This document shows positions 10,370 to 24,283 of a DNA stretch of 64,000 nt, piece after piece. Under the pieces are notes generated by a model. It made no database searches and was not told where the DNA came from. It was given only the letters and a program-made list of their open reading frames with translations. The translations under genes were made by a program, and so were the position numbers. Source of the stretch: Rhodospirillaceae bacterium. Lineage in GTDB: Bacteria; Pseudomonadota; Alphaproteobacteria; MPNO01; UBA2964. Each line of letters begins with the position of its first letter. The stretch's first letter is position 1. The stretch spans positions 153,222 to 217,221 of the forward strand of contig PBIN01000009.1 of NCBI GenBank assembly GCA_002720855.1, in the 5' to 3' direction.

Positions 10370-11248
10370 TTGGCTATGAGATATTGTCAGGGTCCTGACC
10401 CCCAAACCAAAACACCAAACTTTATCGCACCACCAAAAGCCTGCGATGCGCATTGCCATGTCTTTGGGCCGGAAGCGAAATTTCCGTTTGCTGAGGGCCG
10501 AACCTATACACCGCCTGATTCCCCGTTTGAAGCTATGCAGATATTGCAAAAGACACTGGGTATCGAGCGCGCCGTGATTGTACAAGCAACCTGCCATGGA
10601 ACCGACAACACGGCGGCACTGGATGCTATAGCGCGGTCCGAAGGCCGCTATCGCGGCGTTGCTATCGTTGATGACAGCTTTTCCGATGATGATTTTAAGC
10701 AGCTTGATGATGGCGGGATGCGGGGCATACGATTCTCGTTCGCACGCCATATAGGTAACGCGCCGGACTTTTCATTGGTTCGCCGCATAACGGAGCGCGT
10801 GGCACCCTTGGGCTGGCATGTTGTGATCTATATGGAAGCACCGGATATTGTTGAAAATGCTGACACATTGGCAGATCTTCCATTGCCGGTAGTGATAGAC
10901 CATATGGGGCGTGTAAAGACCAAAGACGGCGTCGAACAAGAGGCCTTTCAGCTTCTGCTTGGCCTCCTGCGTGACAAGGAAGATTTCTGGGTAAAGATTT
11001 GCGGTGCGGAACGAATTTCGTCGGGTGGTGCACCTTTTGAAGATGCCGTGCCGTTTGCGCAGGCCTGCATTGAAGCAGCGCCGGATCGTGTTTTATGGGG
11101 TACGGATTGGCCGCATCCCAATATTGAGGGGCTCATGCCCAATGACGGCGATTTAATGAATCTGCTGGCGCTTCACGCCCCGGATGAGGCCACACGCAAT
11201 CGTATTCTCGTTGACAACCCGGCAAGGCTATACGGTTTTCCAGACTAG
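10370..11248 (+). CDS. Amidohydrolase-2 family hydrolase, LigI-like (2-pyrone-4,6-dicarboxylate lactonase-like).
   Basis: 292 aa, matching LigI length. N-terminal CDAHCHVFGP and C-terminal WGTDWPHP are hallmarks of the metal-independent amidohydrolase-2 fold. Confidence 0.6.
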   Translation: MAMRYCQGPDPQTKTPNFIAPPKACDAHCHVFGPEAKFPFAEGRTYTPPDSPFEAMQILQKTLGIERAVIVQATCHGTDNTAALDAIARSEGRYRGVAIVDDSFSDDDFKQLDDGGMRGIRFSFARHIGNAPDFSLVRRITERVAPLGWHVVIYMEAPDIVENADTLADLPLPVVIDHMGRVKTKDGVEQEAFQLLLGLLRDKEDFWVKICGAERISSGGAPFEDAVPFAQACIEAAPDRVLWGTDWPHPNIEGLMPNDGDLMNLLALHAPDEATRNRILVDNPARLYGFPD

Positions 11249-12039
11249 CTCTTGAGGTCCTGACCGACGTCCCAGGTAACGACGAGCTTTTCCATTGCGA
11301 CAACGGCGGCATACAGGACAACACCAACGATGCTGAGGACGGTTAATGCCGCCATTAGGAGCGGTGTGTCGATATTGCCTTCGGCAAAAACGATGAGATA
11401 GCCCAACCCTCTTTGCGCAGTGACAAACTCTGCAACGATAATTCCGATGACAGCAAAGGTGATGCCGATCTTTAATCCACTGAAGATATAGGGCAGGGCG
11501 TTGGGAAACTCGATCTTACAGAAAACTGTCCAACGATTGGCGCTAAAGGAATGAGCCATGCGGACCATAAGCGGGTCGGTGCTAAGAATGCCAGCATATG
11601 TGTTCACAACCATCGGGAAAAAGGCGATGACGAAGGCCAGGAGCACCCGAGACAGTGTGCCCAAGCCGAACCAGACAATGAACAGTGGTGCGAGCGCAAC
11701 CTTGGGCACGACCTGAAACGCAACGACCAGCGGATAAACGCTATTGTGAAAGACCGGGAAAAAAGCCAGTAAAACGCCTAGACCCATTCCAACGATTACC
11801 GCAAGCGCAAACCCCAGCAGGCATTCGCTGGTCGTGGGCCAGGTATGAATGGCAAGCAATTCCCAATGTTTGAAAATTGTTTGAATAATTTTTACCGGCG
11901 TCGGCAAAATTGCTTCGGGTACGTTGAACGAAACCACCCAAACATGCCAAATGACGAGCATTAAGAGCGCTATCGCAGTTGGGCCTGCGATCTGCCCCGC
12001 CATTGAAAATAATTTGCTGTCCGAATTGTTGTTGGCCAT
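11245..12039 (-). CDS. ABC transporter permease (NitT/TauT family).
   Basis: Six hydrophobic segments and an EAA-like loop. It overlaps the stop of the upstream gene by 4 nt. Confidence 0.8.
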   Translation of the reverse strand: MANNNSDSKLFSMAGQIAGPTAIALLMLVIWHVWVVSFNVPEAILPTPVKIIQTIFKHWELLAIHTWPTTSECLLGFALAVIVGMGLGVLLAFFPVFHNSVYPLVVAFQVVPKVALAPLFIVWFGLGTLSRVLLAFVIAFFPMVVNTYAGILSTDPLMVRMAHSFSANRWTVFCKIEFPNALPYIFSGLKIGITFAVIGIIVAEFVTAQRGLGYLIVFAEGNIDTPLLMAALTVLSIVGVVLYAAVVAMEKLVVTWDVGQDLKS

Positions 12040-12057
12040 GGCTCTAACTTCCGGCGT

Positions 12058-12822
12058 CTAGTGTTCGATCAAGCCGCGCAAATGCGCGACATATTCGTTG
12101 AATTCAGGCGTTTCCTCGATAGAGAGTTCGCGTGGTCGCGGCAGGTCGATCGTTACGATTTCGCTGATCACCGCAGGGCGGGGTGACATCACGAAGACAC
12201 GGTCTGACAGGAACACGGCCTCGCGAATACTGTGCGTTACAAACAACACAGTCTTTTTATATTCTTCCCAGATCCGCAAAAGCTCCTGATTCATTAAATC
12301 ACGAGTCATTGCATCAAGAGCGCTGAACGGCTCATCCATAAGGAGAAGGTTCGGATTATGAATAAGCGCTCGGCAAATTGCGACACGTTGTTGCATCCCG
12401 CCAGAGAGTTCGCTCGGTACATTATCTGCAAACCCTGACAAACCTGTCATTTCGAGGAGTTCGTTCGCTCTCTCAATATAATCGTCGGTCTTCAACCCGA
12501 GACTCTCGATGGGGAACAGGACATTCTTCAGGATCGTCCGCCACGGCATTAGAACAGGTGCCTGGAAAACGACGCCTGTATCGCGGCGCGGCTTGGAGAC
12601 CGCCTCGCCACCCACCGACACGGTACCCGACGTTATCGGTAACAACCCGCCGACAATCATCAACAAGGTGCTTTTGCCGCATCCGCTGGGTCCAAGGATG
12701 GAAATAAATTCACCTTCCGCGACTTCCATCTGGACTTCGCGAATAGCCTCAATTTCGTCGCGACGCGTTTGGTATGTCTTGCGGAGATTTTCGACCCGAA
12801 CATGGGCGTTGGCTTCAGTCAT
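12058..12822 (-). CDS. ABC transporter ATP-binding protein.
   Basis: Walker A GPSGCGKST, signature LSGGMQQRVAICRAL and Walker B LLLMDEPFSALD. Confidence 0.85.
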   Translation of the reverse strand: MTEANAHVRVENLRKTYQTRRDEIEAIREVQMEVAEGEFISILGPSGCGKSTLLMIVGGLLPITSGTVSVGGEAVSKPRRDTGVVFQAPVLMPWRTILKNVLFPIESLGLKTDDYIERANELLEMTGLSGFADNVPSELSGGMQQRVAICRALIHNPNLLLMDEPFSALDAMTRDLMNQELLRIWEEYKKTVLFVTHSIREAVFLSDRVFVMSPRPAVISEIVTIDLPRPRELSIEETPEFNEYVAHLRGLIEH

Positions 12823-12908
12823 TTTAGGAGGTTACCAATCAAAACTAATTACGCAAACGACCCGTTTCCCCAATTTGGGGAAACGGGTGTCTGAGACAAA
12901 TGAAACGC

Positions 12909-14036
12909 TTACGATTTAGCCGGATCGTTGTTGGCCGAGAGCTTCTTGGCTTTCGCCCATTCGGCTTTAGACAGCTTGATGTTACCAGCAAATTTATTGG
13001 TAAATAGCTTGTCGATCGCCGGGACCTTCTTGGCATTCATGTACTTGATGACCACGTCGCGGGTCCGCGTCTGATCCTTTTCGTCCATCCAGCCAAGACC
13101 GTTCTTTTCTACAGCTGGGCCAATCGACAGGAAGTTGGTGTTGCCCGAATGGATCAATAGCAGTTCGCGCGACTTGGTTTTCAATTCAGGCCGTGCCGCA
13201 ATCATGTAATCCAAAGACTTGCCAGGATCGAGTAATTGCAGTTTCAGACCTTCCATGGCGCCGTCAACGATCGCCTGAACCAGGGCTGGCTCGTTCTTGA
13301 TCATGTCGGAACGCGTGATCAGTCCGAGGTCAAGCGTTTGCAATCCATAATCGGCATACATGAAATGAACAGCAGGTGTCTTGCTGGCGAGCGACGCTGC
13401 GTTACTGACATAGTAGGTGCCGGTGCAGTCGGCCTGCTTATTGAGAACTGAGCTGATGAGCTTACTCGGATGCACAAGATTGCGTTTGATCTTGCCAATA
13501 TCGACCCCTGCGGCCCGTGCAAAGCCAGGCATCATGAGTGTGTCGCCTGAAGCAGCGGCACCAACCAATGTAGCGCCTTCAAGGTCTTTGGGAGTTTTGA
13601 TCCCGCTATCCTTGCGGCAGGAGATCGCAATAGGACTCTTTTGCAGTTTCGCACCAATGGCGACGACATCGAGGCCTTTAGAAACGCCGTTAACCGCAAC
13701 GCCATAGCTGGCTTCCGCAAAATTAACAGTCTTCGAGGAAATTGCTTTGATCGCCGCGCCCGATCCGTATCCGCGTTGAATGGAAACGTCGAGACCGCGT
13801 TTTTTCCAATAATCTGCCGCAGCAGCAAACAGGAACGTATGTCCGCCAACGAAAAGCCAGGGCAGCATGAATTGAACTTTGCGCATTTTCGACGCACCGA
13901 CTTCGCTTACGATGGCGGGGGCAACGCCCGTCGCCAGCATAACGCCAAGACCAGTACCGCCTTTAACAATTGTCCGGCGCGTAACGTTTTTTGCAGCGCC
14001 CTTGTCAGTCTTCTTAGTCATCTGTCTCCCTCTCAA
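12909..14036 (-). CDS. ABC transporter periplasmic substrate-binding protein (NMT1/SsuA-like) with a Tat-type signal.
   Basis: N-terminal TRRTIVKGGTGLGVMLATG twin-arginine motif. It is first in the operon with the ATPase and permease. Confidence 0.7.
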   Translation of the reverse strand: MRGRQMTKKTDKGAAKNVTRRTIVKGGTGLGVMLATGVAPAIVSEVGASKMRKVQFMLPWLFVGGHTFLFAAAADYWKKRGLDVSIQRGYGSGAAIKAISSKTVNFAEASYGVAVNGVSKGLDVVAIGAKLQKSPIAISCRKDSGIKTPKDLEGATLVGAAASGDTLMMPGFARAAGVDIGKIKRNLVHPSKLISSVLNKQADCTGTYYVSNAASLASKTPAVHFMYADYGLQTLDLGLITRSDMIKNEPALVQAIVDGAMEGLKLQLLDPGKSLDYMIAARPELKTKSRELLLIHSGNTNFLSIGPAVEKNGLGWMDEKDQTRTRDVVIKYMNAKKVPAIDKLFTNKFAGNIKLSKAEWAKAKKLSANNDPAKS

Positions 14037-14093
14037 TAACGGTTTCTATCTTTATGAGCCCTAAGAAACTCGGACCACGAAGAAACTCTACGC

Positions 14094-14120
14094 TGATTCC
14101 CGCATAATGCGTAGGGGAAT
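14094..14120. promoter_or_regulatory. 27-bp nested inverted repeat GATTCCC-GCATAATGCG-TAGGGGAATC in the promoter region of the ABC operon.
   Basis: Outer arms GATTCCC/GGGAATC enclose an inner palindrome CGCATaATGCG. It lies 58 bp upstream of the binding-protein gene start. Confidence 0.35.
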
Positions 14121-14139
14121 CTACAAAAATAGAGCAGCC

Positions 14140-14724
14140 CTAACCGATAGGAATTTCCATTGATTTTTGGACGGCCGGCCGCTGGGTAAGGGCGTCCACC
14201 CATCGAACGAGATTGGGGTACTCATTGAGATCAATGAAATCGAAAGCGAATGCCGCAAATCTTCCGATCGCCATCATGTCAGCAACAGAATAGTTCCCCG
14301 CAAAATATTCGTTTTCTGCGAGGTGATGATTTATGGCTTCCAGAAGAGTACGACACTGTCCTTCCAGATCGCGTGCATGATTAAGGTTCGAAAAACTGAC
14401 CGAAACATTTGTGGCGAGATAGATAAGCCATTGTTTTACCTGCCATCTTTCTTCTTCGGTTTCGCCGATAAACTGGCCAGTTTTTCCGCCGATATATTCC
14501 AGGATAGCTGCGGACTCCATTAGATGAATCGGCTCGCCACCGGGTCCGTCTGGGTCAATCAGGCAGGGCACTTTGCCGCCCGGGCTGATTTTTAAATATT
14601 CCGGTTCTTTGTTTTTGCCGCTGTGCGGGTCAACCGCGATCAAATTATAGGGTGTGCCGGTTTCTTCTAAAATGATGATTGGCCGACGGCCGTTCGCAGA
14701 CTTCCAACAATAAAGATCGATCAT
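14140..14724 (-). CDS. Glutathione S-transferase.
   Basis: 194 aa with a thioredoxin-like N-domain (VPCLID, ESAAILEYI) and a helical C-domain. Confidence 0.75.
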   Translation of the reverse strand: MIDLYCWKSANGRRPIIILEETGTPYNLIAVDPHSGKNKEPEYLKISPGGKVPCLIDPDGPGGEPIHLMESAAILEYIGGKTGQFIGETEEERWQVKQWLIYLATNVSVSFSNLNHARDLEGQCRTLLEAINHHLAENEYFAGNYSVADMMAIGRFAAFAFDFIDLNEYPNLVRWVDALTQRPAVQKSMEIPIG

Positions 14725-14919
14725 GTCTTAAATTTCCAAAATGTTACGAGACCTGTTCGCTATACGATTTTGGCCGTTACGTTCTCATAAATGTTTAGGT
14801 CAGCTAAACCGGAATTCTTTTGCGGCGCAAGGCCGCTTGTCGGATTGTGCCTGCGGCGTTCGATCAGTACACTGCGGCCACCAAAACGAAATCTCCAGGG
14901 AATTCCTACAGGAAGTAAA

Positions 14920-15828
14920 ATGGCAGACATACCGAGACTCAATGGCGTGATTGGCGCACTCGCTGCTGGGAAGCCAGCCTTTACCGCTTTTTCGACACCC
15001 GATGTGACGTCAGCGCTCGCATACAGCACCAACACGGGCTATGACGGCATCGTGTTCGAAATGGAGCACAATCCGTGGGACGGACCGGTGCTGCGCGATT
15101 GCTTGCAGTACATGCTCAATCGCGGACAGATCGCAAAATCAGCTTCTCTCGCACCGACGGTGACCCCAATGGTTCGGGTGCCGCCCAACGGCAACGAGAT
15201 GGCGCAATGGCAGGCCAAGCAAGCACTGGACCTTGGCGTTTACGGCGTGGTCTGGCCGCATATCAGCTCGGTTGAAGAAGCTTATAACGCGGTGGCGGCC
15301 TGTCGGTATCCACGGATGAGCGACGCACCGCTTTATGAGCCTGCGGGTATTCGTGGGGATGGACCAACTGGCGCTGTGCGATATTGGGGTATCAGTCAGC
15401 AGGAATATTATCAGCGTGCCGATGTCTGGCCTCTGGCACCAGAAGGCGAAATTCTTGTCATTTTGATGATCGAAGATACCAAGGGGATGGCGGCATTGCC
15501 CGATATTCTCAAGGACGTGCCGGGCGTCGGTGCCGTTTTGATCGGCGAGGGAGACTTAAGTCAGGAACTCGGCTATCCCCGCCAATACGAGCATCCAGTC
15601 GTTCTCGAAGCAATGGCGGAGATCGTTGCGAATTGTAAGGAAAATAGCGTCGCTGTCGGGCACCCGCATGTGAACGCCGGAAATGTGGAGCGCATTTTGG
15701 AAGAGGGTTACACCTTCCTGATGGCTGCACCGGTCCGCTCGACGCCTGGGTTGGACAAAGGTCTGGAACTTTCGGGACGTGCGGATGGCGGTGGTGATAA
15801 ATCCACCGAACCCGCGCCGTCTTATTGA
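14920..15828 (+). CDS. HpcH/HpaI-family class II aldolase (4-hydroxy-2-oxo-acid aldolase).
   Basis: The track ORF at 14791 is over-extended. The ATG at 14920 follows an ACAGGAAG RBS. The product reads MADIPRLNG... and contains MIEDTKGMAALPDIL. Confidence 0.7.
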   Translation: MADIPRLNGVIGALAAGKPAFTAFSTPDVTSALAYSTNTGYDGIVFEMEHNPWDGPVLRDCLQYMLNRGQIAKSASLAPTVTPMVRVPPNGNEMAQWQAKQALDLGVYGVVWPHISSVEEAYNAVAACRYPRMSDAPLYEPAGIRGDGPTGAVRYWGISQQEYYQRADVWPLAPEGEILVILMIEDTKGMAALPDILKDVPGVGAVLIGEGDLSQELGYPRQYEHPVVLEAMAEIVANCKENSVAVGHPHVNAGNVERILEEGYTFLMAAPVRSTPGLDKGLELSGRADGGGDKSTEPAPSY

Positions 15829-15850
15829 TTAATTTAGGGAGTAACTTCAA

Positions 15851-16876
15851 ATGATTATCGATTGCCACGGCCACTATACAACCGAGCCGGAAGCGCTGAC
15901 CGATTACCGCAAAGAACAGTTAGCGGGTGTCGACAATGATCCCAACTTTGTGCCGTCCGAAGCGAGTTTTGAATGCAGCGACGATGAAATGCGCGAACGG
16001 CTTGAGCCAGCTCAAATCAAATTGCAACAGGACCGTGGTTCCGATTTAACAATCTTTTCGCCCCGTGCTGTTGGGATGGGCCATCATCTCGGTACTGCGA
16101 AAACCAGCGAATACTGGGCGACGATTTGTAACAATATGGTGCGCCGGGCCTGCGACCTTTATCCGGATAACTTCGTACCGGTATGCCAGTTGCCGCAATA
16201 TCCCGGCATTGAGCCCAGAAACTGCATTGCCGAGCTGGAACGCTGTGTCAATGAGATGGGTTTTATTGGGTTGAACCTGAATCCAGACCCTTCTGGAGCT
16301 ATGTGGACTGATCCACCGATCACAGACAAATGGTGGTATCCAATTTACGAGAAAATGGTCGAGCTTGACGTCCCCGCGATGTTGCATGTCAGCGGATCGT
16401 GCAATCCGAACTTCCATCATACCGGATCCCACTATCTCTGCGGTGACACGACAGTGTTTATGCAGTTGCTCATGTCAGACCTGTTTAAGGAATTCCCGAC
16501 ACTGAAATTCATTATTCCCCACGGTGGTGGTGCCGTGCCGTATCATTGGGGCCGCTTCCGGGGTCTTGCACAAGATATGGGCCGTCCGCCATTGGATGAA
16601 CTTTTGCTCAACAATGTGTTTTTCGACACTTGCGTTTATCACCAGGCGGGAATCGATTGCATGCTCAAAGTGATTCCCACGAAAAATATTTTGTTCGCTT
16701 CAGAAATGGTCGGTGCAGTGCGCGGTGTCGATCCCGAAACCGGATATAACTACGATGACACCAAACGTTACATCGATGCGGCCGATATTACAGACGCCGA
16801 AAGAGCGCAGATTTTCTCGGAAAATGCGTTCAATGTGTTCTCTCGTCTGGAAGGCGCAATCGGCGGCCGCAAATAG
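15851..16876 (+). CDS. Amidohydrolase-2 family hydratase/decarboxylase, LigJ-like (4-oxalomesaconate hydratase-like).
   Basis: 341 aa, N-terminal MIIDCHGHYT and C-terminal FASEMV. It sits 22 nt after the aldolase gene. Confidence 0.6.
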   Translation: MIIDCHGHYTTEPEALTDYRKEQLAGVDNDPNFVPSEASFECSDDEMRERLEPAQIKLQQDRGSDLTIFSPRAVGMGHHLGTAKTSEYWATICNNMVRRACDLYPDNFVPVCQLPQYPGIEPRNCIAELERCVNEMGFIGLNLNPDPSGAMWTDPPITDKWWYPIYEKMVELDVPAMLHVSGSCNPNFHHTGSHYLCGDTTVFMQLLMSDLFKEFPTLKFIIPHGGGAVPYHWGRFRGLAQDMGRPPLDELLLNNVFFDTCVYHQAGIDCMLKVIPTKNILFASEMVGAVRGVDPETGYNYDDTKRYIDAADITDAERAQIFSENAFNVFSRLEGAIGGRK

Positions 16877-17342: not shown

Positions 17343-19253
17343 GTGCTAGATATCGTAAACGGAGACATTACACCTGAAGTCTTTCAGACCGAACGTGGTA
17401 TCCGCGTCATGGTCGATCACAGCCGTGATGAAAAGTTGACCGAATTCGGTAAAGAGACCCTGTCAGATCGATATTTAATGCCGGATGAAAGTTATCAGGA
17501 TCTCTTTGCACGTGTCGCGGCGCATTACGCGGACGATTCGGAGCACGCTCAGCGGCTTTACGATTACATCAGTAACCTATGGTTCATGCCCTCCACGCCG
17601 GTTCTTTCGAATGGCGGTACCAAGCGCGGATTGCCAATCTCGTGCTTTCTGAATGAGGCAAATGACAGCCTGAGCGGCATTGTGAATCTATGGAACGAGA
17701 ATGTCTGGCTCGCGGCAAAGGGCGGCGGCATTGGTAGCTATTGGGGCAATCTGCGTTCCATCGGCGAGAAAGTTGGCGCCAATGGCAAAACCTCGGGCAT
17801 TATTCCATTCATTCGCGTTATGGATTCGCTGACGCTGGCGATCAGTCAAGGCTCGTTGCGGCGTGGGTCTGCGGCAATCTATCTGCCAATTGACCATCCC
17901 GAAATTGAAGAATTTATCGAATTACGGCGTCCGACCGGTGGCGATCCCAACCGGAAAGCGCTCAACTTGCATCACGGGATTCTACTTACCGACGAGTTTA
18001 TGCGTTTGGTTGAGGAAGATGGCGAAATGCCGCTTCGCAGCCCGAAAGACCGTCACGTGGTACGGACTGTTTCCGCCCGCTCATTATGGATTCGCCTGCT
18101 GACGGCGCGCGTCGAGACCGGCGAGCCCTATTTCATCTATATCGACCATGTAAACAAGGCGATCCCGGAACATCACAAACTTGCTAATCTTGAAGTCAAA
18201 ATGTCCAACCTGTGCAGTGAGATTACGCTGCCGACGGGCACCGATAAGGATGGCAAGGAACGTACCGCCGTATGCTGCTTGTGCTCGCTCAATCTTGAAA
18301 CCTGGATGGAGTGGAACGAAGAACCGCAATTTATTCCTGATGTCATGCGGTTCCTCGACAATGTTCTGCAGGATTTCATCGATAATGCGCCCGATGAGAT
18401 GGACCGCGCCCGCTATTCGGCAATGCGCGAGCGTTCGGTTGGTCTTGGCGTGATGGGTCTGCACTCTTTCTACCAGCAGCAGAATATTCCGTTGGAATCG
18501 GTTATGGCGAAAGTGTGGAACAAGAAAATGTTCAAACACATCCGCGAACAGGCTGATGTGGCGTCAGTTGAGTTGGCACATGAACGTGGTGCCTGCCCGG
18601 ATGCCGCCGATTACGGCATCATGGAACGGTTCTCGAGCAAAATGGCGGTCGCCCCGACGGCATCAATTTCGATCATTTGTGGCGGTTCATCGCCTGGTAT
18701 CGAGCCGATTGCTGCGAATTCCTTTACGCACAAAACGCTGTCCGGCTCGTTTAGCGTCAAAAACAAGTATCTCAAGGAGCTGCTGGCCGAAAAAGGCAAG
18801 GATACCGACGAAATCTGGTCATCTATCACGACGCATGAAGGCTCGGTTCAGCATCTCGATTTCCTGACAGACGATGAAAAAGACGTGTTCAAGACGGCGT
18901 TTGAGCTTGATCAGCGCTGGATTATCGATCTTGCGGGCGATCGTTCCGAATTCATCTGTCAGTCGCAATCAATAAACGTATTCCTGCCGGCCGATGTCGA
19001 AAAGAAAGTGCTGCATCAAATCCATTGGCAGGCCTGGAAGAAAGGCGTCAAAAGCCTCTATTACTGCCGGTCCAAATCGATCCAGCGTGCCGAAGCAGTA
19101 TCGCAGAAGCAGGAAGTCACCGAGATTGCGGAGGACGGCATTATGCCGGTGCCGTCGCCGGATGCGATTGAGATCCCGCTGGCTGCTGCTGCTTCAAGCG
19201 AAGGCGGTTCGGAAAACGACAATGATTACGAGGAATGCCTCTCTTGTCAGTAA
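17343..19253 (+). CDS. nrdA: Class I ribonucleoside-diphosphate reductase large (alpha) subunit; short form without an ATP-cone.
   Basis: GTG start after an AAGGGAG RBS. An NrdA/E-type catalytic region (LCSEITLPT) is present. Confidence 0.75.
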   Translation: MLDIVNGDITPEVFQTERGIRVMVDHSRDEKLTEFGKETLSDRYLMPDESYQDLFARVAAHYADDSEHAQRLYDYISNLWFMPSTPVLSNGGTKRGLPISCFLNEANDSLSGIVNLWNENVWLAAKGGGIGSYWGNLRSIGEKVGANGKTSGIIPFIRVMDSLTLAISQGSLRRGSAAIYLPIDHPEIEEFIELRRPTGGDPNRKALNLHHGILLTDEFMRLVEEDGEMPLRSPKDRHVVRTVSARSLWIRLLTARVETGEPYFIYIDHVNKAIPEHHKLANLEVKMSNLCSEITLPTGTDKDGKERTAVCCLCSLNLETWMEWNEEPQFIPDVMRFLDNVLQDFIDNAPDEMDRARYSAMRERSVGLGVMGLHSFYQQQNIPLESVMAKVWNKKMFKHIREQADVASVELAHERGACPDAADYGIMERFSSKMAVAPTASISIICGGSSPGIEPIAANSFTHKTLSGSFSVKNKYLKELLAEKGKDTDEIWSSITTHEGSVQHLDFLTDDEKDVFKTAFELDQRWIIDLAGDRSEFICQSQSINVFLPADVEKKVLHQIHWQAWKKGVKSLYYCRSKSIQRAEAVSQKQEVTEIAEDGIMPVPSPDAIEIPLAAAASSEGGSENDNDYEECLSCQ

Positions 19254-20338: not shown

Positions 20339-20374
20339 GGGCCGCCGTCCGCAAGGGCGGCGGCCCATTTCTTT
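20339..20374 (+). terminator. GC-rich hairpin terminator after nrdB.
   Basis: Stem GGGCCGCCG, 10-nt loop, stem CGGCGGCCC, then ATTTCTTT. Confidence 0.5.
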
Positions 20375-20395: not shown

Positions 20396-21313
20396 CTACG
20401 CGGATTCTTGCCCAAAGACACCAGAGGAAATCAGGGAGTTAATCTCCTTGCGGATGATCTCGCTTACGACCTCCGCGACCGGATCGCCCGCTAGGTCCTC
20501 CCGCATGATCAAGGTCCGTGTAATACCAATGCCATTCAACCGCGTGACATTAAATTTGTGATTCTTTAATTCTTCAAAAATCGAGGAATGCGGCAAAAGC
20601 GCATAGGCGAGGCCCCGTCTTACGAAGTCTTTAATTACATCGAGGCTTTCCAATTCGTAGGCAATATTGAGGGAGACACCGGCTTTTGCGGCGGCATGAT
20701 CAAATATTTTTTGTGGCCCACTTGCCCGGCCAAATGTTGCCAGCGGAAATGGTTGCAGTTCTGAAATCTCAATGTTTTCTGCAGAGAAACGTTCATCCGA
20801 ACGACCGCCGACAAGATAAACCGGTTCAGTGACAAGAGGTTCTAAAGTGAATCCTGTACGTGAGTCAGGATCTACCATTACTGCGATATCGACGCGTCGA
20901 GAATCAAGCGCTGCCAATAATGTATAGGCGCCACCCTCGACCACCCTAAGGGCTATTCTTGAAAAGTTTTTCTCAATCGAATTTGCTACACCGCCGAAAA
21001 GGTGTCTTCCCAATGAACCCGGTGCACCAATCGTGGCAATACCAGACGGGCTTTCGACATCTTCCGATACCAGCGATCGGATTTCGTTTAATTGGCGAAT
21101 GATTGCTGTCGCATGGTCGAGGAATCGCGTGCCGGCGGGCGTTAGGCGAATGCCTCTCGCATGCCTAGCACATAGTTCGACGCCAAGTTCCCCTTCCAAT
21201 GACCGGAGATGACGCGTTAGGGCTGGCTGGGCAACGTGAAGACGGTTTGACGCCTCTCTTAAACTGCCAGCGGCAGCAATTTCCACAAAATATCTGAGCT
21301 GGCGCAGTTCCAT
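20396..21313 (-). CDS. LysR-family transcriptional regulator.
   Basis: N-terminal HTH MELRQLRYFVEIAAAGSLREASNRLHVAQPALTRHLRSLE and a substrate-binding C-terminal domain. Confidence 0.85.
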   Translation of the reverse strand: MELRQLRYFVEIAAAGSLREASNRLHVAQPALTRHLRSLEGELGVELCARHARGIRLTPAGTRFLDHATAIIRQLNEIRSLVSEDVESPSGIATIGAPGSLGRHLFGGVANSIEKNFSRIALRVVEGGAYTLLAALDSRRVDIAVMVDPDSRTGFTLEPLVTEPVYLVGGRSDERFSAENIEISELQPFPLATFGRASGPQKIFDHAAAKAGVSLNIAYELESLDVIKDFVRRGLAYALLPHSSIFEELKNHKFNVTRLNGIGITRTLIMREDLAGDPVAEVVSEIIRKEINSLISSGVFGQESA

Positions 21314-21339
21314 ATCCGCTTCTTAATTGATCACAATTT

Positions 21340-21351
21340 GTTATCGATAAC
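21340..21351. promoter_or_regulatory. Perfect palindrome GTTATCGATAAC with two further TTATCG repeats; a likely LysR-type operator.
   Basis: It sits 27 bp upstream of the LysR gene start in the divergent intergenic region. Confidence 0.35.
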
Positions 21352-21451
21352 GAGACTAACACGATATTTATCGTTTCAAAATGTTATCGGTAGGTTGTCT
21401 ACAACAAAAATAAATTTTAAGACCAACAGGGTTCCGACGCAGTAAAACATC

Positions 21452-21985
21452 ATGTCATTGCCTATACCGAAAACGGCAGCAGAAGCGCTGCTCATGCGCA
21501 TGAAATTTTGCGGAATTGACTACGTCTTTTCCAACGGTGGGACTGATTTTGCTTCAATCATCGAAGCGTATGCACGCGGGGCGACCGCGGGGTTGCCAAT
21601 GCCGGAGCCCATCATCGTAGCGCATGAAACTGCAGCCGTCGCGATGGCGACAGCCGTGCAAGCGACCCGAATTGGCTTGGTTATCTTCGCGATCCCCTTC
21701 TTGTTTGCCTATAACCCGATAATGCTGATTGTCCCTGAAGGGGGTGCGGCCTGGGATACTGTTGCTTTCCTCTTCGTACTGATAAAGCTCGCGGCCATTG
21801 TTTACATGCTTTCAAGTGCCGCATCGGGTTTCGACAAGACGAAAATGCACGTGCTCGAATCCATTTTGCGTATCGCAATTGCCTTGATCATTATTCACCC
21901 TGATATGTTGATCAGCGGATGTGCGATTGGTGCCGCGATAGCGATTTTTGCCGGGCATCGAATGCTAAAGTTAAGTCGCACATGA
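21452..21985 (+). pseudogene. Chimeric ORF. About 70 aa of a thiamine-diphosphate enzyme N-terminal domain are fused to a hydrophobic C-terminal fragment of a membrane transporter.
   Basis: Residues 1-75 resemble a TPP-enzyme N-domain (AAEALLMRMKFCGIDYVFSNGGTDF...PIIVAHETAAVAMA). The sequence then switches abruptly, at about nt 21665, to transmembrane sequence (IGLVIFAIPFLFAYNPIML...). Confidence 0.4.
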
Positions 21986-22114
21986 ATTTGTAAATAAGCG
22001 CTGCTTTTGGTCCGGAAAAAGTCCTTTTCCATTGACAGGATATGGCTCTATGCGGATTCTGTCCGTCAGATTTATGGATGGAAAGTCATCTAGCGATTAA
22101 TAGGGAGATTTGGA

Positions 22115-23020
22115 ATGACGAATGAGACCCCCGTAAAGTTAGCGGTCATGAATGCTGTGCACGATTTGCCCGTGTTGGTGGCTCGCGACGAAGGGTTTTT
22201 TAAAGACGAAGGACTCGACATCGAGTTTGTGACGACGCCCGGCATGGCACAGGTCACAACTTCGCATACGGTTCAATTTGACTCTGTTTTCGAGCGCCCA
22301 CTCGACTCTGTCTATAACGATGGGGGCATAGATCAGTTCCGCATGTGCGAGTGGGGGATCGTCAAACGGGCTGTAGAAGCCGAGGCAAACGGATTGCGGT
22401 CGCGCAAAATTGTTTCTCTCGGTGCGTCCATGTCCAAATTCGCCATTGCCGTTAATCCCGACTCCGATATTTACGAGCCTGAAATGCTGAAGGGCAAGCC
22501 GATCGCGGTCACGCCGAATAACGGATCGCACTTCGTTACCCTGAAGATGATCGAAGGCTTTATTGCGAAGGAGCATGTAAAGGTCACTAATGCAGGCTCG
22601 ATGCCTAAACGGATCGATGCCCTCAAGAAGGGTGAGGTCGCTGGCGTCAGCTTGATGGAACCTTGGATTAGCGTCGCAGAAAAAGAAGGGCTTCGTATCC
22701 TGATGGAATCTCATTCAACCCGCGCGGAAGCGGCAGGTGATGACCTCGACGGGCCGACCCTTGCGGCAATGTTTCGGGCGCAGGCGCGGGCGTGCGAGGT
22801 TTTAGCCAATGATCCGACGCCTTATATCCACTATTTCATCAATGAAACCGGTGGACGGCTGGACGAGAAAGATTTCCGCCATGAGCGGTTGCTCCATGCG
22901 CCGCCGCAGCCTTATACGCGGGAACGTTGGGACGATACCTATAACTGGACGGTGAGCTGGAATATGACAGTGCCAGACGCCAGTTACGAACAAATCGTCG
23001 ATAACCGCGCGTTCGATTAA
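22115..23020 (+). CDS. NMT1/THI5-like periplasmic-binding-fold protein without a signal peptide.
   Basis: 301 aa. No N-terminal hydrophobic segment. A GGAG RBS is present. Confidence 0.55.
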   Translation: MTNETPVKLAVMNAVHDLPVLVARDEGFFKDEGLDIEFVTTPGMAQVTTSHTVQFDSVFERPLDSVYNDGGIDQFRMCEWGIVKRAVEAEANGLRSRKIVSLGASMSKFAIAVNPDSDIYEPEMLKGKPIAVTPNNGSHFVTLKMIEGFIAKEHVKVTNAGSMPKRIDALKKGEVAGVSLMEPWISVAEKEGLRILMESHSTRAEAAGDDLDGPTLAAMFRAQARACEVLANDPTPYIHYFINETGGRLDEKDFRHERLLHAPPQPYTRERWDDTYNWTVSWNMTVPDASYEQIVDNRAFD

Positions 23021-23033
23021 AGCAGTTTAATAA

Positions 23034-23078
23034 GCCACCACCAGTTGCCTTACGGGCGATTGGTGGTGGTTTTTTTTT
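23034..23078 (+). terminator. Rho-independent terminator between convergent genes.
   Basis: Stem GCCACCACCAG, loop, stem TTGGTGGTGG, then T9. Confidence 0.6.
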
Positions 23079-23092
23079 GTGAAATTGAACGC

Positions 23093-24118
23093 TTAGCTCG
23101 GCAGGAAAACGCCCTTGCCTGTCTTTTGCTGATCCAGCAATTTATAGGCCTCATCCGCCTGTTCGAGCTTGAACTGATGGGTGAAGACGCTATCGACGTC
23201 GATCTTGCGATCCGAGACAAATCGCGCACAATCGGCCTGTCCGTTCTTGGAAAATGTCCAATGGCCCACCAATGTCACCTGACGGAAAACAAGGTCTGGC
23301 CCAACCATGAAGGTAAGTTCGCCCCCACCCGCAATGAAACAGCAAGTGCCCCATTTACGGGTACCTTTGACCGCCGCTGTACGTGCCTGCGAGACGCCCG
23401 CCGTTTCAACAACTTTGTGGGCGCCCTCACCGTGCGTCAGCTCTTTGATGGCCTCGACTGGATCAACATCTGTTGGGTCAATAACAGCGTGCGCCCCTTT
23501 CTCAAGGGCAAGCTCTCGGCGTTCGGGAGATGTCTCAATAGCGATAACATGCGCGCCCATCTCCGCGCCGAATTGGGTTGTTGATAGTCCGACAGGACCC
23601 TGGCCATAAACAGCGAGCGTCTCGTCACCTTCAAGGCCTACTCTTTTAAGCGCGCCATACGCCGTCCCCGTGCCGCAGGAAATGGCAGCGCCGGTCATAA
23701 AGCTTAGATCCTCCGGCAACGGAACCAGCGTATGAGCCGCAGCGGCCATATAGCGTGCATGTGCGCCATGGCCTTGGCCAGAGCCATAAACCGTGGGGCC
23801 TTCATCGCAAAGTTGTGACCAGCCCGATTTACAGTGCCGGCAATTGCCACAGCCGTCATAGTGATGAACCATGACCCGGTCGCCGACCTTTGCTTCGCTC
23901 TCGGTAACATGTTCGCCGAGTGCCACGACGACGCCACATGGTTCGTGACCTGCAATAAAATGCTCGGTTCCTTTAAATTCACGACGATATGCATGTAAAT
24001 CGGTGCCGCACATACCGGACGCCTTGATTTCAAGAACAACGTCACGCGGGCTAGGCGTAGGGTCGGCAAACTCCCGCAATTCCAGTTCGCGGTTTCCGAG
24101 AAATGTAATGCCCAACAT
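23093..24118 (-). CDS. Zinc-dependent alcohol dehydrogenase (medium-chain dehydrogenase/reductase).
   Basis: Motif GHEPCGVVVALG. The start is at the internal Met (MLGITF...) rather than the track's 24187. Confidence 0.75.
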   Translation of the reverse strand: MLGITFLGNRELELREFADPTPSPRDVVLEIKASGMCGTDLHAYRREFKGTEHFIAGHEPCGVVVALGEHVTESEAKVGDRVMVHHYDGCGNCRHCKSGWSQLCDEGPTVYGSGQGHGAHARYMAAAAHTLVPLPEDLSFMTGAAISCGTGTAYGALKRVGLEGDETLAVYGQGPVGLSTTQFGAEMGAHVIAIETSPERRELALEKGAHAVIDPTDVDPVEAIKELTHGEGAHKVVETAGVSQARTAAVKGTRKWGTCCFIAGGGELTFMVGPDLVFRQVTLVGHWTFSKNGQADCARFVSDRKIDVDSVFTHQFKLEQADEAYKLLDQQKTGKGVFLPS

Positions 24119-24283
24119 ACTAATTTCGCCCCCAGATAATTCACATCGATTACAAATAGTAATAGCATTTTGCGAGTTGGGGGACACCTGACCGACTTTC
24201 TTTACTTGTCTCTCGTGACGTGGGCATTTGGGCTGGTATCATGAGCCATCATCAACGATCAGGCATTCGCCGGGGAGATCGAT

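Follow-up and report, generated by a model that had tools for sequence, protein, structure and literature searches.

Directly beside a divergent LysR-type regulator gene, an ORF of 177 aa with an ATG start is present at 21452..21985 on the + strand of the window (the whole stretch of DNA that we analysed, 64,000 nucleotides). Its first part resembles a ThDP enzyme and its last part resembles a transporter. The question raised by this locus is whether the ORF is the scar of a deletion, as the original prediction had it, or whether it is a protein that is still expressed and selected, the outcome of several rearrangements, or an error of assembly. We consider, with a probability of roughly 90%, that the ORF is a non-functional fusion scar (pseudogene) left by a single short-repeat deletion of about 4.3 kb. 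We infer the loss of function, the recent date of the deletion, and its molecular mechanism. The features of the locus are as follows.

20396..21313, - strand: LysR-type transcriptional regulator, 305 aa, full length, with HTH_1 and LysR_substrate over the full length
21314..21451, no strand: divergent control region of LysR and the operon (putative promoter-operator), 138 bp; the counterpart in the relative L010 has 144 bp
21452..21649, + strand: remnant of a ThDP-enzyme gene (TPP), codons 1-66, the start of the PYR domain including His58-Glu59
21640..21649, + strand: putative deletion junction, CGCGATGGCG, of which ATGGCG (21644-21649) is common to both parental alignments
21650..21985, + strand: remnant of a TAXI-TRAP fused permease gene, the last 111 codons and the stop, about four terminal hydrophobic helices
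22115-23020, + strand: NMT1/THI5- or SsuA-like "binding protein", 301 aa

The two halves of the ORF and their parental genes

In the NCBIfam profile search, residues 7-69 of the chimera corresponded to positions 9-71 of the 571 positions of NF006203 (PRK08327, thiamine pyrophosphate-requiring protein; E=6e-18), and residues 62-171 corresponded to positions 505-610 of the 615 positions of TIGR02123 (TRAP transporter fused permease; E=1.3e-11). The head of the chimera also matched positions 2-61 of Pfam TPP_enzyme_N (PF02776) with E=6.5e-5; this match is under the gathering score because only half of the domain (61 of 119 positions) remains. Hydropathy showed about four hydrophobic segments in the tail. 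That is, the ORF consists of codons 1-66 of a PRK08327-type ThDP-enzyme gene, followed by the last 111 codons of a TAXI-type TRAP fused permease gene.

The enzyme remnant aligned ungapped with the initial 198 nt of its orthologues at 69-76% identity, and its protein was 76-82% identical to the first 66 residues of the intact orthologues. The permease remnant was 69-75% identical to the orthologous tails, and its first 28 residues were identical in all of them. The predicted enzyme N-terminus is thus borne out by the NF006203 and Pfam profiles and by the identity to the orthologues, and the predicted transporter-permease C-terminus by the TIGR02123 match and the hydrophobic segments. The start of the chimera is called differently by gene callers, either at ATG 21452 (177 aa) or at ATG 21494 (163 aa). 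The orthologous TPP genes align from 21452, and this position is therefore the native start. The deposited NCBI label of the chimera is "hypothetical protein" (MBK18641.1).

Neither half reaches the level of its family. The chimera scored 64.6 bits against the 456-bit curated cutoff of NF006203, and 43.9 bits against the cutoff of 320.65 of TIGR02123, of which only the C-terminal model positions given above were matched. The Pfam search returned only the partial PF02776 and no match to PF00205 or PF02775, so that the three-domain ThDP architecture is absent from the chimera, and it gave no match to the DctM core (PF06808). Compared with the NF006203/PRK08327 enzymes, the chimera retains the conserved His-Glu of the PYR domain, but it keeps only 66 of about 564 residues and lacks the rest of PYR, the middle domain, and the PP (diphosphate-binding) domain. 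It cannot act as a ThDP enzyme. Compared with the TIGR02123 permeases, which are DctQM fusions of TAXI-type TRAP transporters, both the DctQ-like part and the DctM core are gone. Furthermore, tblastn found no homologue of the TAXI solute-binding partner gene anywhere in the 64-kb window, whereas all six relatives described below have one. No other TPP, TAXI, or TRAP copy was found in the 64-kb window.

The intact form of the cassette was found in six relatives, L007-L012. L007 and L008 are metagenome contigs that were found through the best one-sided matches to the chimera. L009-L012 are alphaproteobacterial reference MAGs, one of them named Defluviicoccus, and were obtained by a LysR-anchored scan of one genome per GTDB species. 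The cassette consists of a LysR gene divergent from the TPP gene (564 aa), a TAXI binding-protein gene (337 aa), and a fused permease gene (651 aa); the genes for TPP, TAXI, and TRAP are in the same order and on one strand in all six (6/6). The cassette proteins of L010 are full members of their families, with 636.6 bits against a cutoff of 456 for NF006203, 134.6 against 84 for TIGR02122, and 442.6 against 321 for TIGR02123. The genomic context of the cassette differs in each genome.

Alignment to these syntenic loci revealed the segment that is missing from the window, namely the remainder of the TPP gene, the TAXI gene, and most of the TRAP gene. The original prediction had described the enzyme gene as fused to a downstream transporter. 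The transporter was correctly recognized, yet it is the last gene of the same operon, and the whole TAXI binding-protein gene between them has been lost too.

In L009-L012, the LysR gene is directly divergent from the TPP gene at a distance of about 145 bp. In L007 (4118-6001) and L008 (626-2063), genes for an alpha/beta-hydrolase (PcaD-like), LigA, and a LigB-type class III extradiol dioxygenase lie between LysR and TPP. A second deletion between LysR and the start of TPP in the window was considered and rejected, since the four reference MAGs have LysR directly divergent from TPP as the window does. The arrangement of the window is therefore the common one, and the hydrolase-LigAB block represents a variant confined to the lineage of L007 and L008. 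The TPP gene of L008 is split into 202 + 363 aa, and the TRAP permease gene of L007 into 345 + 305 aa. Both contigs are low-coverage long-read "2x" ENA contigs, and these splits probably reflect indel errors of sequencing and not true pseudogenes. The ORFs flanking the cassette in the GC-rich L010 had no Pfam or NCBIfam match and are probably spurious ORF choices.

We searched for proteins that share the two-part architecture. A word-indexed search of 5.8 billion protein clusters returned a single cluster that spans both halves, and this cluster is the chimera itself; it has two members (163 and 177 aa), and the start codon that was called is the only difference between them. The remaining cluster matches covered at most 64% of the query, and one half only. 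With an exhaustive phmmer run against 1.84 billion representative proteins, 581 matches were obtained at E<=1e-3, and again only the chimera spanned both halves. The other matches either stopped near residue 66-72 (a few extended weakly to 77-90) or started after about residue 40-70. Widespread homologues of the two-part kind, which the original prediction had named as evidence that would count against it, were found in neither collection.

The junction and the direct repeat

The base-by-base comparison with the six orthologous loci placed the joint at 21644..21649 (ATGGCG; codons Ala64-Met65-Ala66). The window aligned without gaps both to the 5' 198 nt of TPP and to the 3' end of TRAP, and the overlap of the two alignments was ATGGCG. 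At the protein level, the enzyme reads HETAAVAMA/HGYY at this point, the permease reads ISGAGAMA/TAVQATRIGL, and the chimera reads HETAAVAMA/TAVQATRIGL. The switch had been expected near nt ~21665; it is indeed abrupt, but the joint is located about 16-21 nt upstream of that position.

In each of the six relatives, both breakpoints carry GCS-ATG-GCN (Ala-Met-Ala) in the same codon phase. An exact direct repeat of 9 nt, CGCCATGGC, is present at both breakpoints in L009-L012 and is the counterpart of the ATGGCG of the window; the exact-match run in L007 and L008 is 5 nt (ATGGC). When random breakpoint pairs were drawn in the same operons as a null, the probability of such a length was about 1e-4 for the former and about 0.006 for the latter. 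The DNA that lies between the breakpoints and is missing from the window amounts to 4246-4329 bp across the six relatives. In some loci the deletion length modulo 3 is off by one base, a value to be read with the indel errors of L007 and L008 in mind. The closest intact relatives, which stand in for the true ancestral sequence, reach only about 70-82% identity; judging from them, the ancestral repeat would have been 5 to 10 nt long. An exact repeat at the breakpoints is the signature of a deletion mediated by short direct repeats (microhomology).

Considering these data together, we propose the following course of events. The ancestor would have carried a LysR gene divergent from genes for a PRK08327-type ThDP enzyme, a TAXI solute-binding protein, and a fused DctQM-type TRAP permease. 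One deletion of about 4.3 kb may then have occurred between short direct repeats (approximately CGCSATGGC, Ala-Met-Ala, in the same phase), of which one would have covered codons 64-66 of the enzyme gene and the other would have preceded the end of the permease gene by 111 codons. RecA-independent short-homology (illegitimate) recombination or replication slippage is the likely mechanism. The deletion would have taken away the binding-protein gene entirely, together with 88% of the enzyme gene and 83% of the permease gene. The frame would have been kept automatically, so that an ORF of 177 codons came to stand behind the intact LysR-controlled promoter.

Both repeats encode Ala-Met-Ala in the same phase, and recombination inside the repeat therefore keeps the frame automatically. 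The preservation of the frame is an automatic outcome of the same-phase repeats and not a sign of selection.

Deletions between short direct repeats (microhomology) create bacterial pseudogenes, as is familiar from the classic lacI deletion spectra and from reductive genome evolution. The window shares with these known deletions a repeat of 5-9 nt, the keeping of one copy, a span of a few kb, and a fusion ORF that is left behind. The sole nicety of the present case is that the Ala-Met-Ala repeats are in the same phase and keep the scar an open frame. Three marks of a deletion-derived fusion pseudogene were found here: separate full-length parents that are collinear, a junction that is independent of the assembly (see below), and a short repeat at both breakpoints. 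The collinear intact relatives and the repeat thus support the original prediction that the enzyme gene was truncated by a deletion and fused in-frame to a transporter fragment.

The regulator, the downstream gene, and rival explanations

The LysR protein of the window matched Pfam HTH_1 (PF00126) with E=3e-20 and LysR_substrate (PF03466) with E=1e-28, and belongs to the LysR-type regulators. With its full length and both domains, the gene is intact, as had been predicted. It was 70-72% identical to the cassette LysR of L009-L012 and 63% identical to that of L007. About 90 nt of the control region adjoining LysR aligned across all seven loci, and GTTATC (21340-21345), GAG, TATT, and a second TATC (21385-21388) were invariant in 7/7. 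A 12-bp palindrome, GTTATCGATAAC, is located at 21340..21351. An intact operator palindrome had been proposed for this region; its GTTATC half is conserved in the seven loci, but the GATAAC half is specific to the window. A consensus scan of the control region for promoters and terminators gave nothing informative. The 138-bp region is the putative LysR operator region, in which the invariant motifs may be LysR sites.

LysR-type regulators are known whose genes diverge from the catabolic or transport operon under their control. The window shares with these systems the HTH_1 and LysR_substrate domains, the divergent orientation, and the shared control region with its conserved GTTATC and TATC motifs, but its operon has been cut to a remnant. 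Unless it acts on the downstream gene, the LysR of the window is in effect an orphan regulator.

No terminator-like site was found between the stop of the chimera and the gene at 22115, and LysR-controlled transcription could therefore run into this NMT1/THI5-like gene. The spacer 21975-22120 folded no better than shuffled sequences (z=-1.0), and Rfam gave no match in the whole window. The protein encoded at 22115-23020 is without an evident signal peptide, and there are no adjacent transporter genes. Its only sequence match in the PDB was a weak one to 3qsl, a "putative exported protein". The gene is absent from the neighbourhood of the cassette in all six relatives. A GC-rich hairpin with a T-run and a 12-bp stem is present at 20339-20366 between the convergent nrdB and lysR genes. 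Another hairpin with a T-run, with a 19-bp stem, is present at 23032-23072 between the convergent genes for the NMT1-like protein and a dehydrogenase, and it is the first terminator-like hairpin on the + strand past the chimera. These two hairpins are likely to be terminators that bound the transcription units around the scar.

We then compared the divergence of the remnants with that of an intact operon. Positions invariant in the other five orthologues were taken, and the departures of the focal sequence were counted; L007, which has an equally long branch and an intact operon, served as the comparison. The numbers of lineage-specific changes were as follows.

TPP remnant: window 5/48, L007 5/48
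TRAP remnant: window 4/71, L007 5/72
LysR: window 22/178, L007 25/181

No excess divergence (relaxation) was seen in the remnants in comparison with the L007 branch, and the ORF is intact, so that the loss of function is not borne out by decay. The remnants are without excess divergence, and the deletion is therefore probably recent relative to the divergence from the known relatives. The same counts are also compatible with constraint on the fusion. The GC3 of the two remnants was 0.59 and 0.56, which is similar to that of the neighbouring genes (0.45-0.68) and not to that of the GC-rich orthologues (0.74-0.91). The cassette has therefore long been resident in this genome and is not a recently imported fragment.

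A rival to the deletion scar is an expressed and selected membrane protein, with a soluble head of 66 residues and a four-helix anchor under the control of LysR, or a promoter that has been usefully rewired to the NMT1/THI5-like gene. Such a reading can appeal to the intact ORF with its native start, to the intact regulator and regulatory region, to the absence of excess divergence, and to the absence of a terminator-like site or significant RNA structure before 22115..23020. However, a recent deletion predicts the absence of decay equally well, and the same-phase repeat accounts for the preserved frame. The architecture is limited to one near-clonal population. In addition, 66 residues are about half of a PYR domain, which normally works only in a dimeric three-domain enzyme, and the last four helices of the permease are present without the DctM core. 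We regard a maintained protein or a useful rewiring as improbable. We give equally little weight to an active scar in which the LysR promoter would respond to the substrate of the lost transporter and would either produce a 177-residue membrane fusion with a new role or drive 22115..23020. If true, an active scar would be an example of regulatory rewiring or of gene birth by deletion.

It is hardly credible that two or more events produced the chimera, either with a TRAP gene of another locus or by stepwise deletions. The differing context of the cassette in each genome and the hydrolase-LigAB insert of L007 and L008 do point to a rearrangement-prone locus. However, the two remnants and LysR lie at much the same distance from one and the same set of cassettes (76-82%, 69-75%, and 63-71% identity, respectively), 6/6 relatives have the parental genes collinear on one strand, and one repeat pair suffices for the junction.

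The identical junction was found in six contigs that came from different Tara Oceans samples, pipelines, and assemblers (a 610-kb ENA Tara scaffold, two MEGAHIT (k127) contigs, a JGI contig, a Logan contig, and a SPAdes node) and were 99.98-99.99% identical to the window over 6-12 kb. The junction is common to six independent assemblies and is therefore not an assembly artefact. In the protein and contig collections searched, no intact allele of this species was present, nor any intact allele exceeding 82% identity. When metagenome contigs were scanned for a closer intact allele, the only matches were three TRAP tails that are more distant, with 49-66% identity; the genome scan, with its one genome per GTDB species, was without this species. 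The sources are metagenome assemblies and the joint is on a short repeat, but an erroneous joining of two separate regions there, in assembly or in binning, is extremely unlikely, given the same junction in six contigs with flanks identical over 6-12 kb, a 9-nt repeat far shorter than any assembly k-mer, and no intact allele of the species in those collections.

Only 1-2 SNPs per 6-12 kb separate the six assemblies, none of them in the ORF, so that a selection test on them is without power. The population is near clonal across the Tara samples. The only recurrent polymorphism was at window position 23477, which is G in the window and A in four of the six other contigs and lies within a Zn-dehydrogenase gene (23093-24187, - strand). 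Single differences among the assemblies were found at 17966, 20087, and 22015.

Possible function of the lost cassette

The lost genes encode a binding-protein-dependent secondary uptake system (TAXI-TRAP) and a ThDP enzyme. The nearest solved structures to the ThDP enzyme of L010 were benzoylformate decarboxylases and 2-hydroxyacyl-CoA lyase (E ~1e-25 to 1e-23). Among the ThDP enzymes, the NF006203/PRK08327 proteins are relatives of benzoylformate decarboxylase, 2-hydroxyacyl-CoA lyase, and acetolactate synthase. In L007 and L008, the hydrolase-LigAB block is joined to the cassette, and a substrate related to aromatic ring cleavage is therefore suggested. The gene content hints that the cassette serves the uptake of an aromatic-derived 2-oxo acid and its decarboxylation or cleavage. 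In a literature search, we found no characterised TPP-TAXI-TRAP-LysR cassette.

The scar is an ordinary gene-loss deletion of a known and common kind in a marine "Rhodospirillaceae bacterium" MAG. For annotation, the ORF is best labelled a pseudogene remnant, so that the organism is not assigned a ThDP enzyme or a TRAP transporter on its account. The locus also offers a clean, nucleotide-resolved case in which an abundant alphaproteobacterium of the open ocean lost an operon through a short same-phase repeat, and it is consistent with ongoing gene loss. We think that the substrate of the intact PRK08327-TAXI-TRAP cassette in the relatives is a more interesting problem than the scar.

Elsewhere in the window, a cluster at 10370-16876 contains genes for an Amidohydro_2 protein, an ABC permease, an ABC ATPase, an NMT1-type binding protein (375 aa), a GST, an HpcH/HpaI-type aldolase, and a second Amidohydro_2 protein. 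This cluster, which lies just upstream of nrdAB, may be an organic-acid or aromatic catabolic island.
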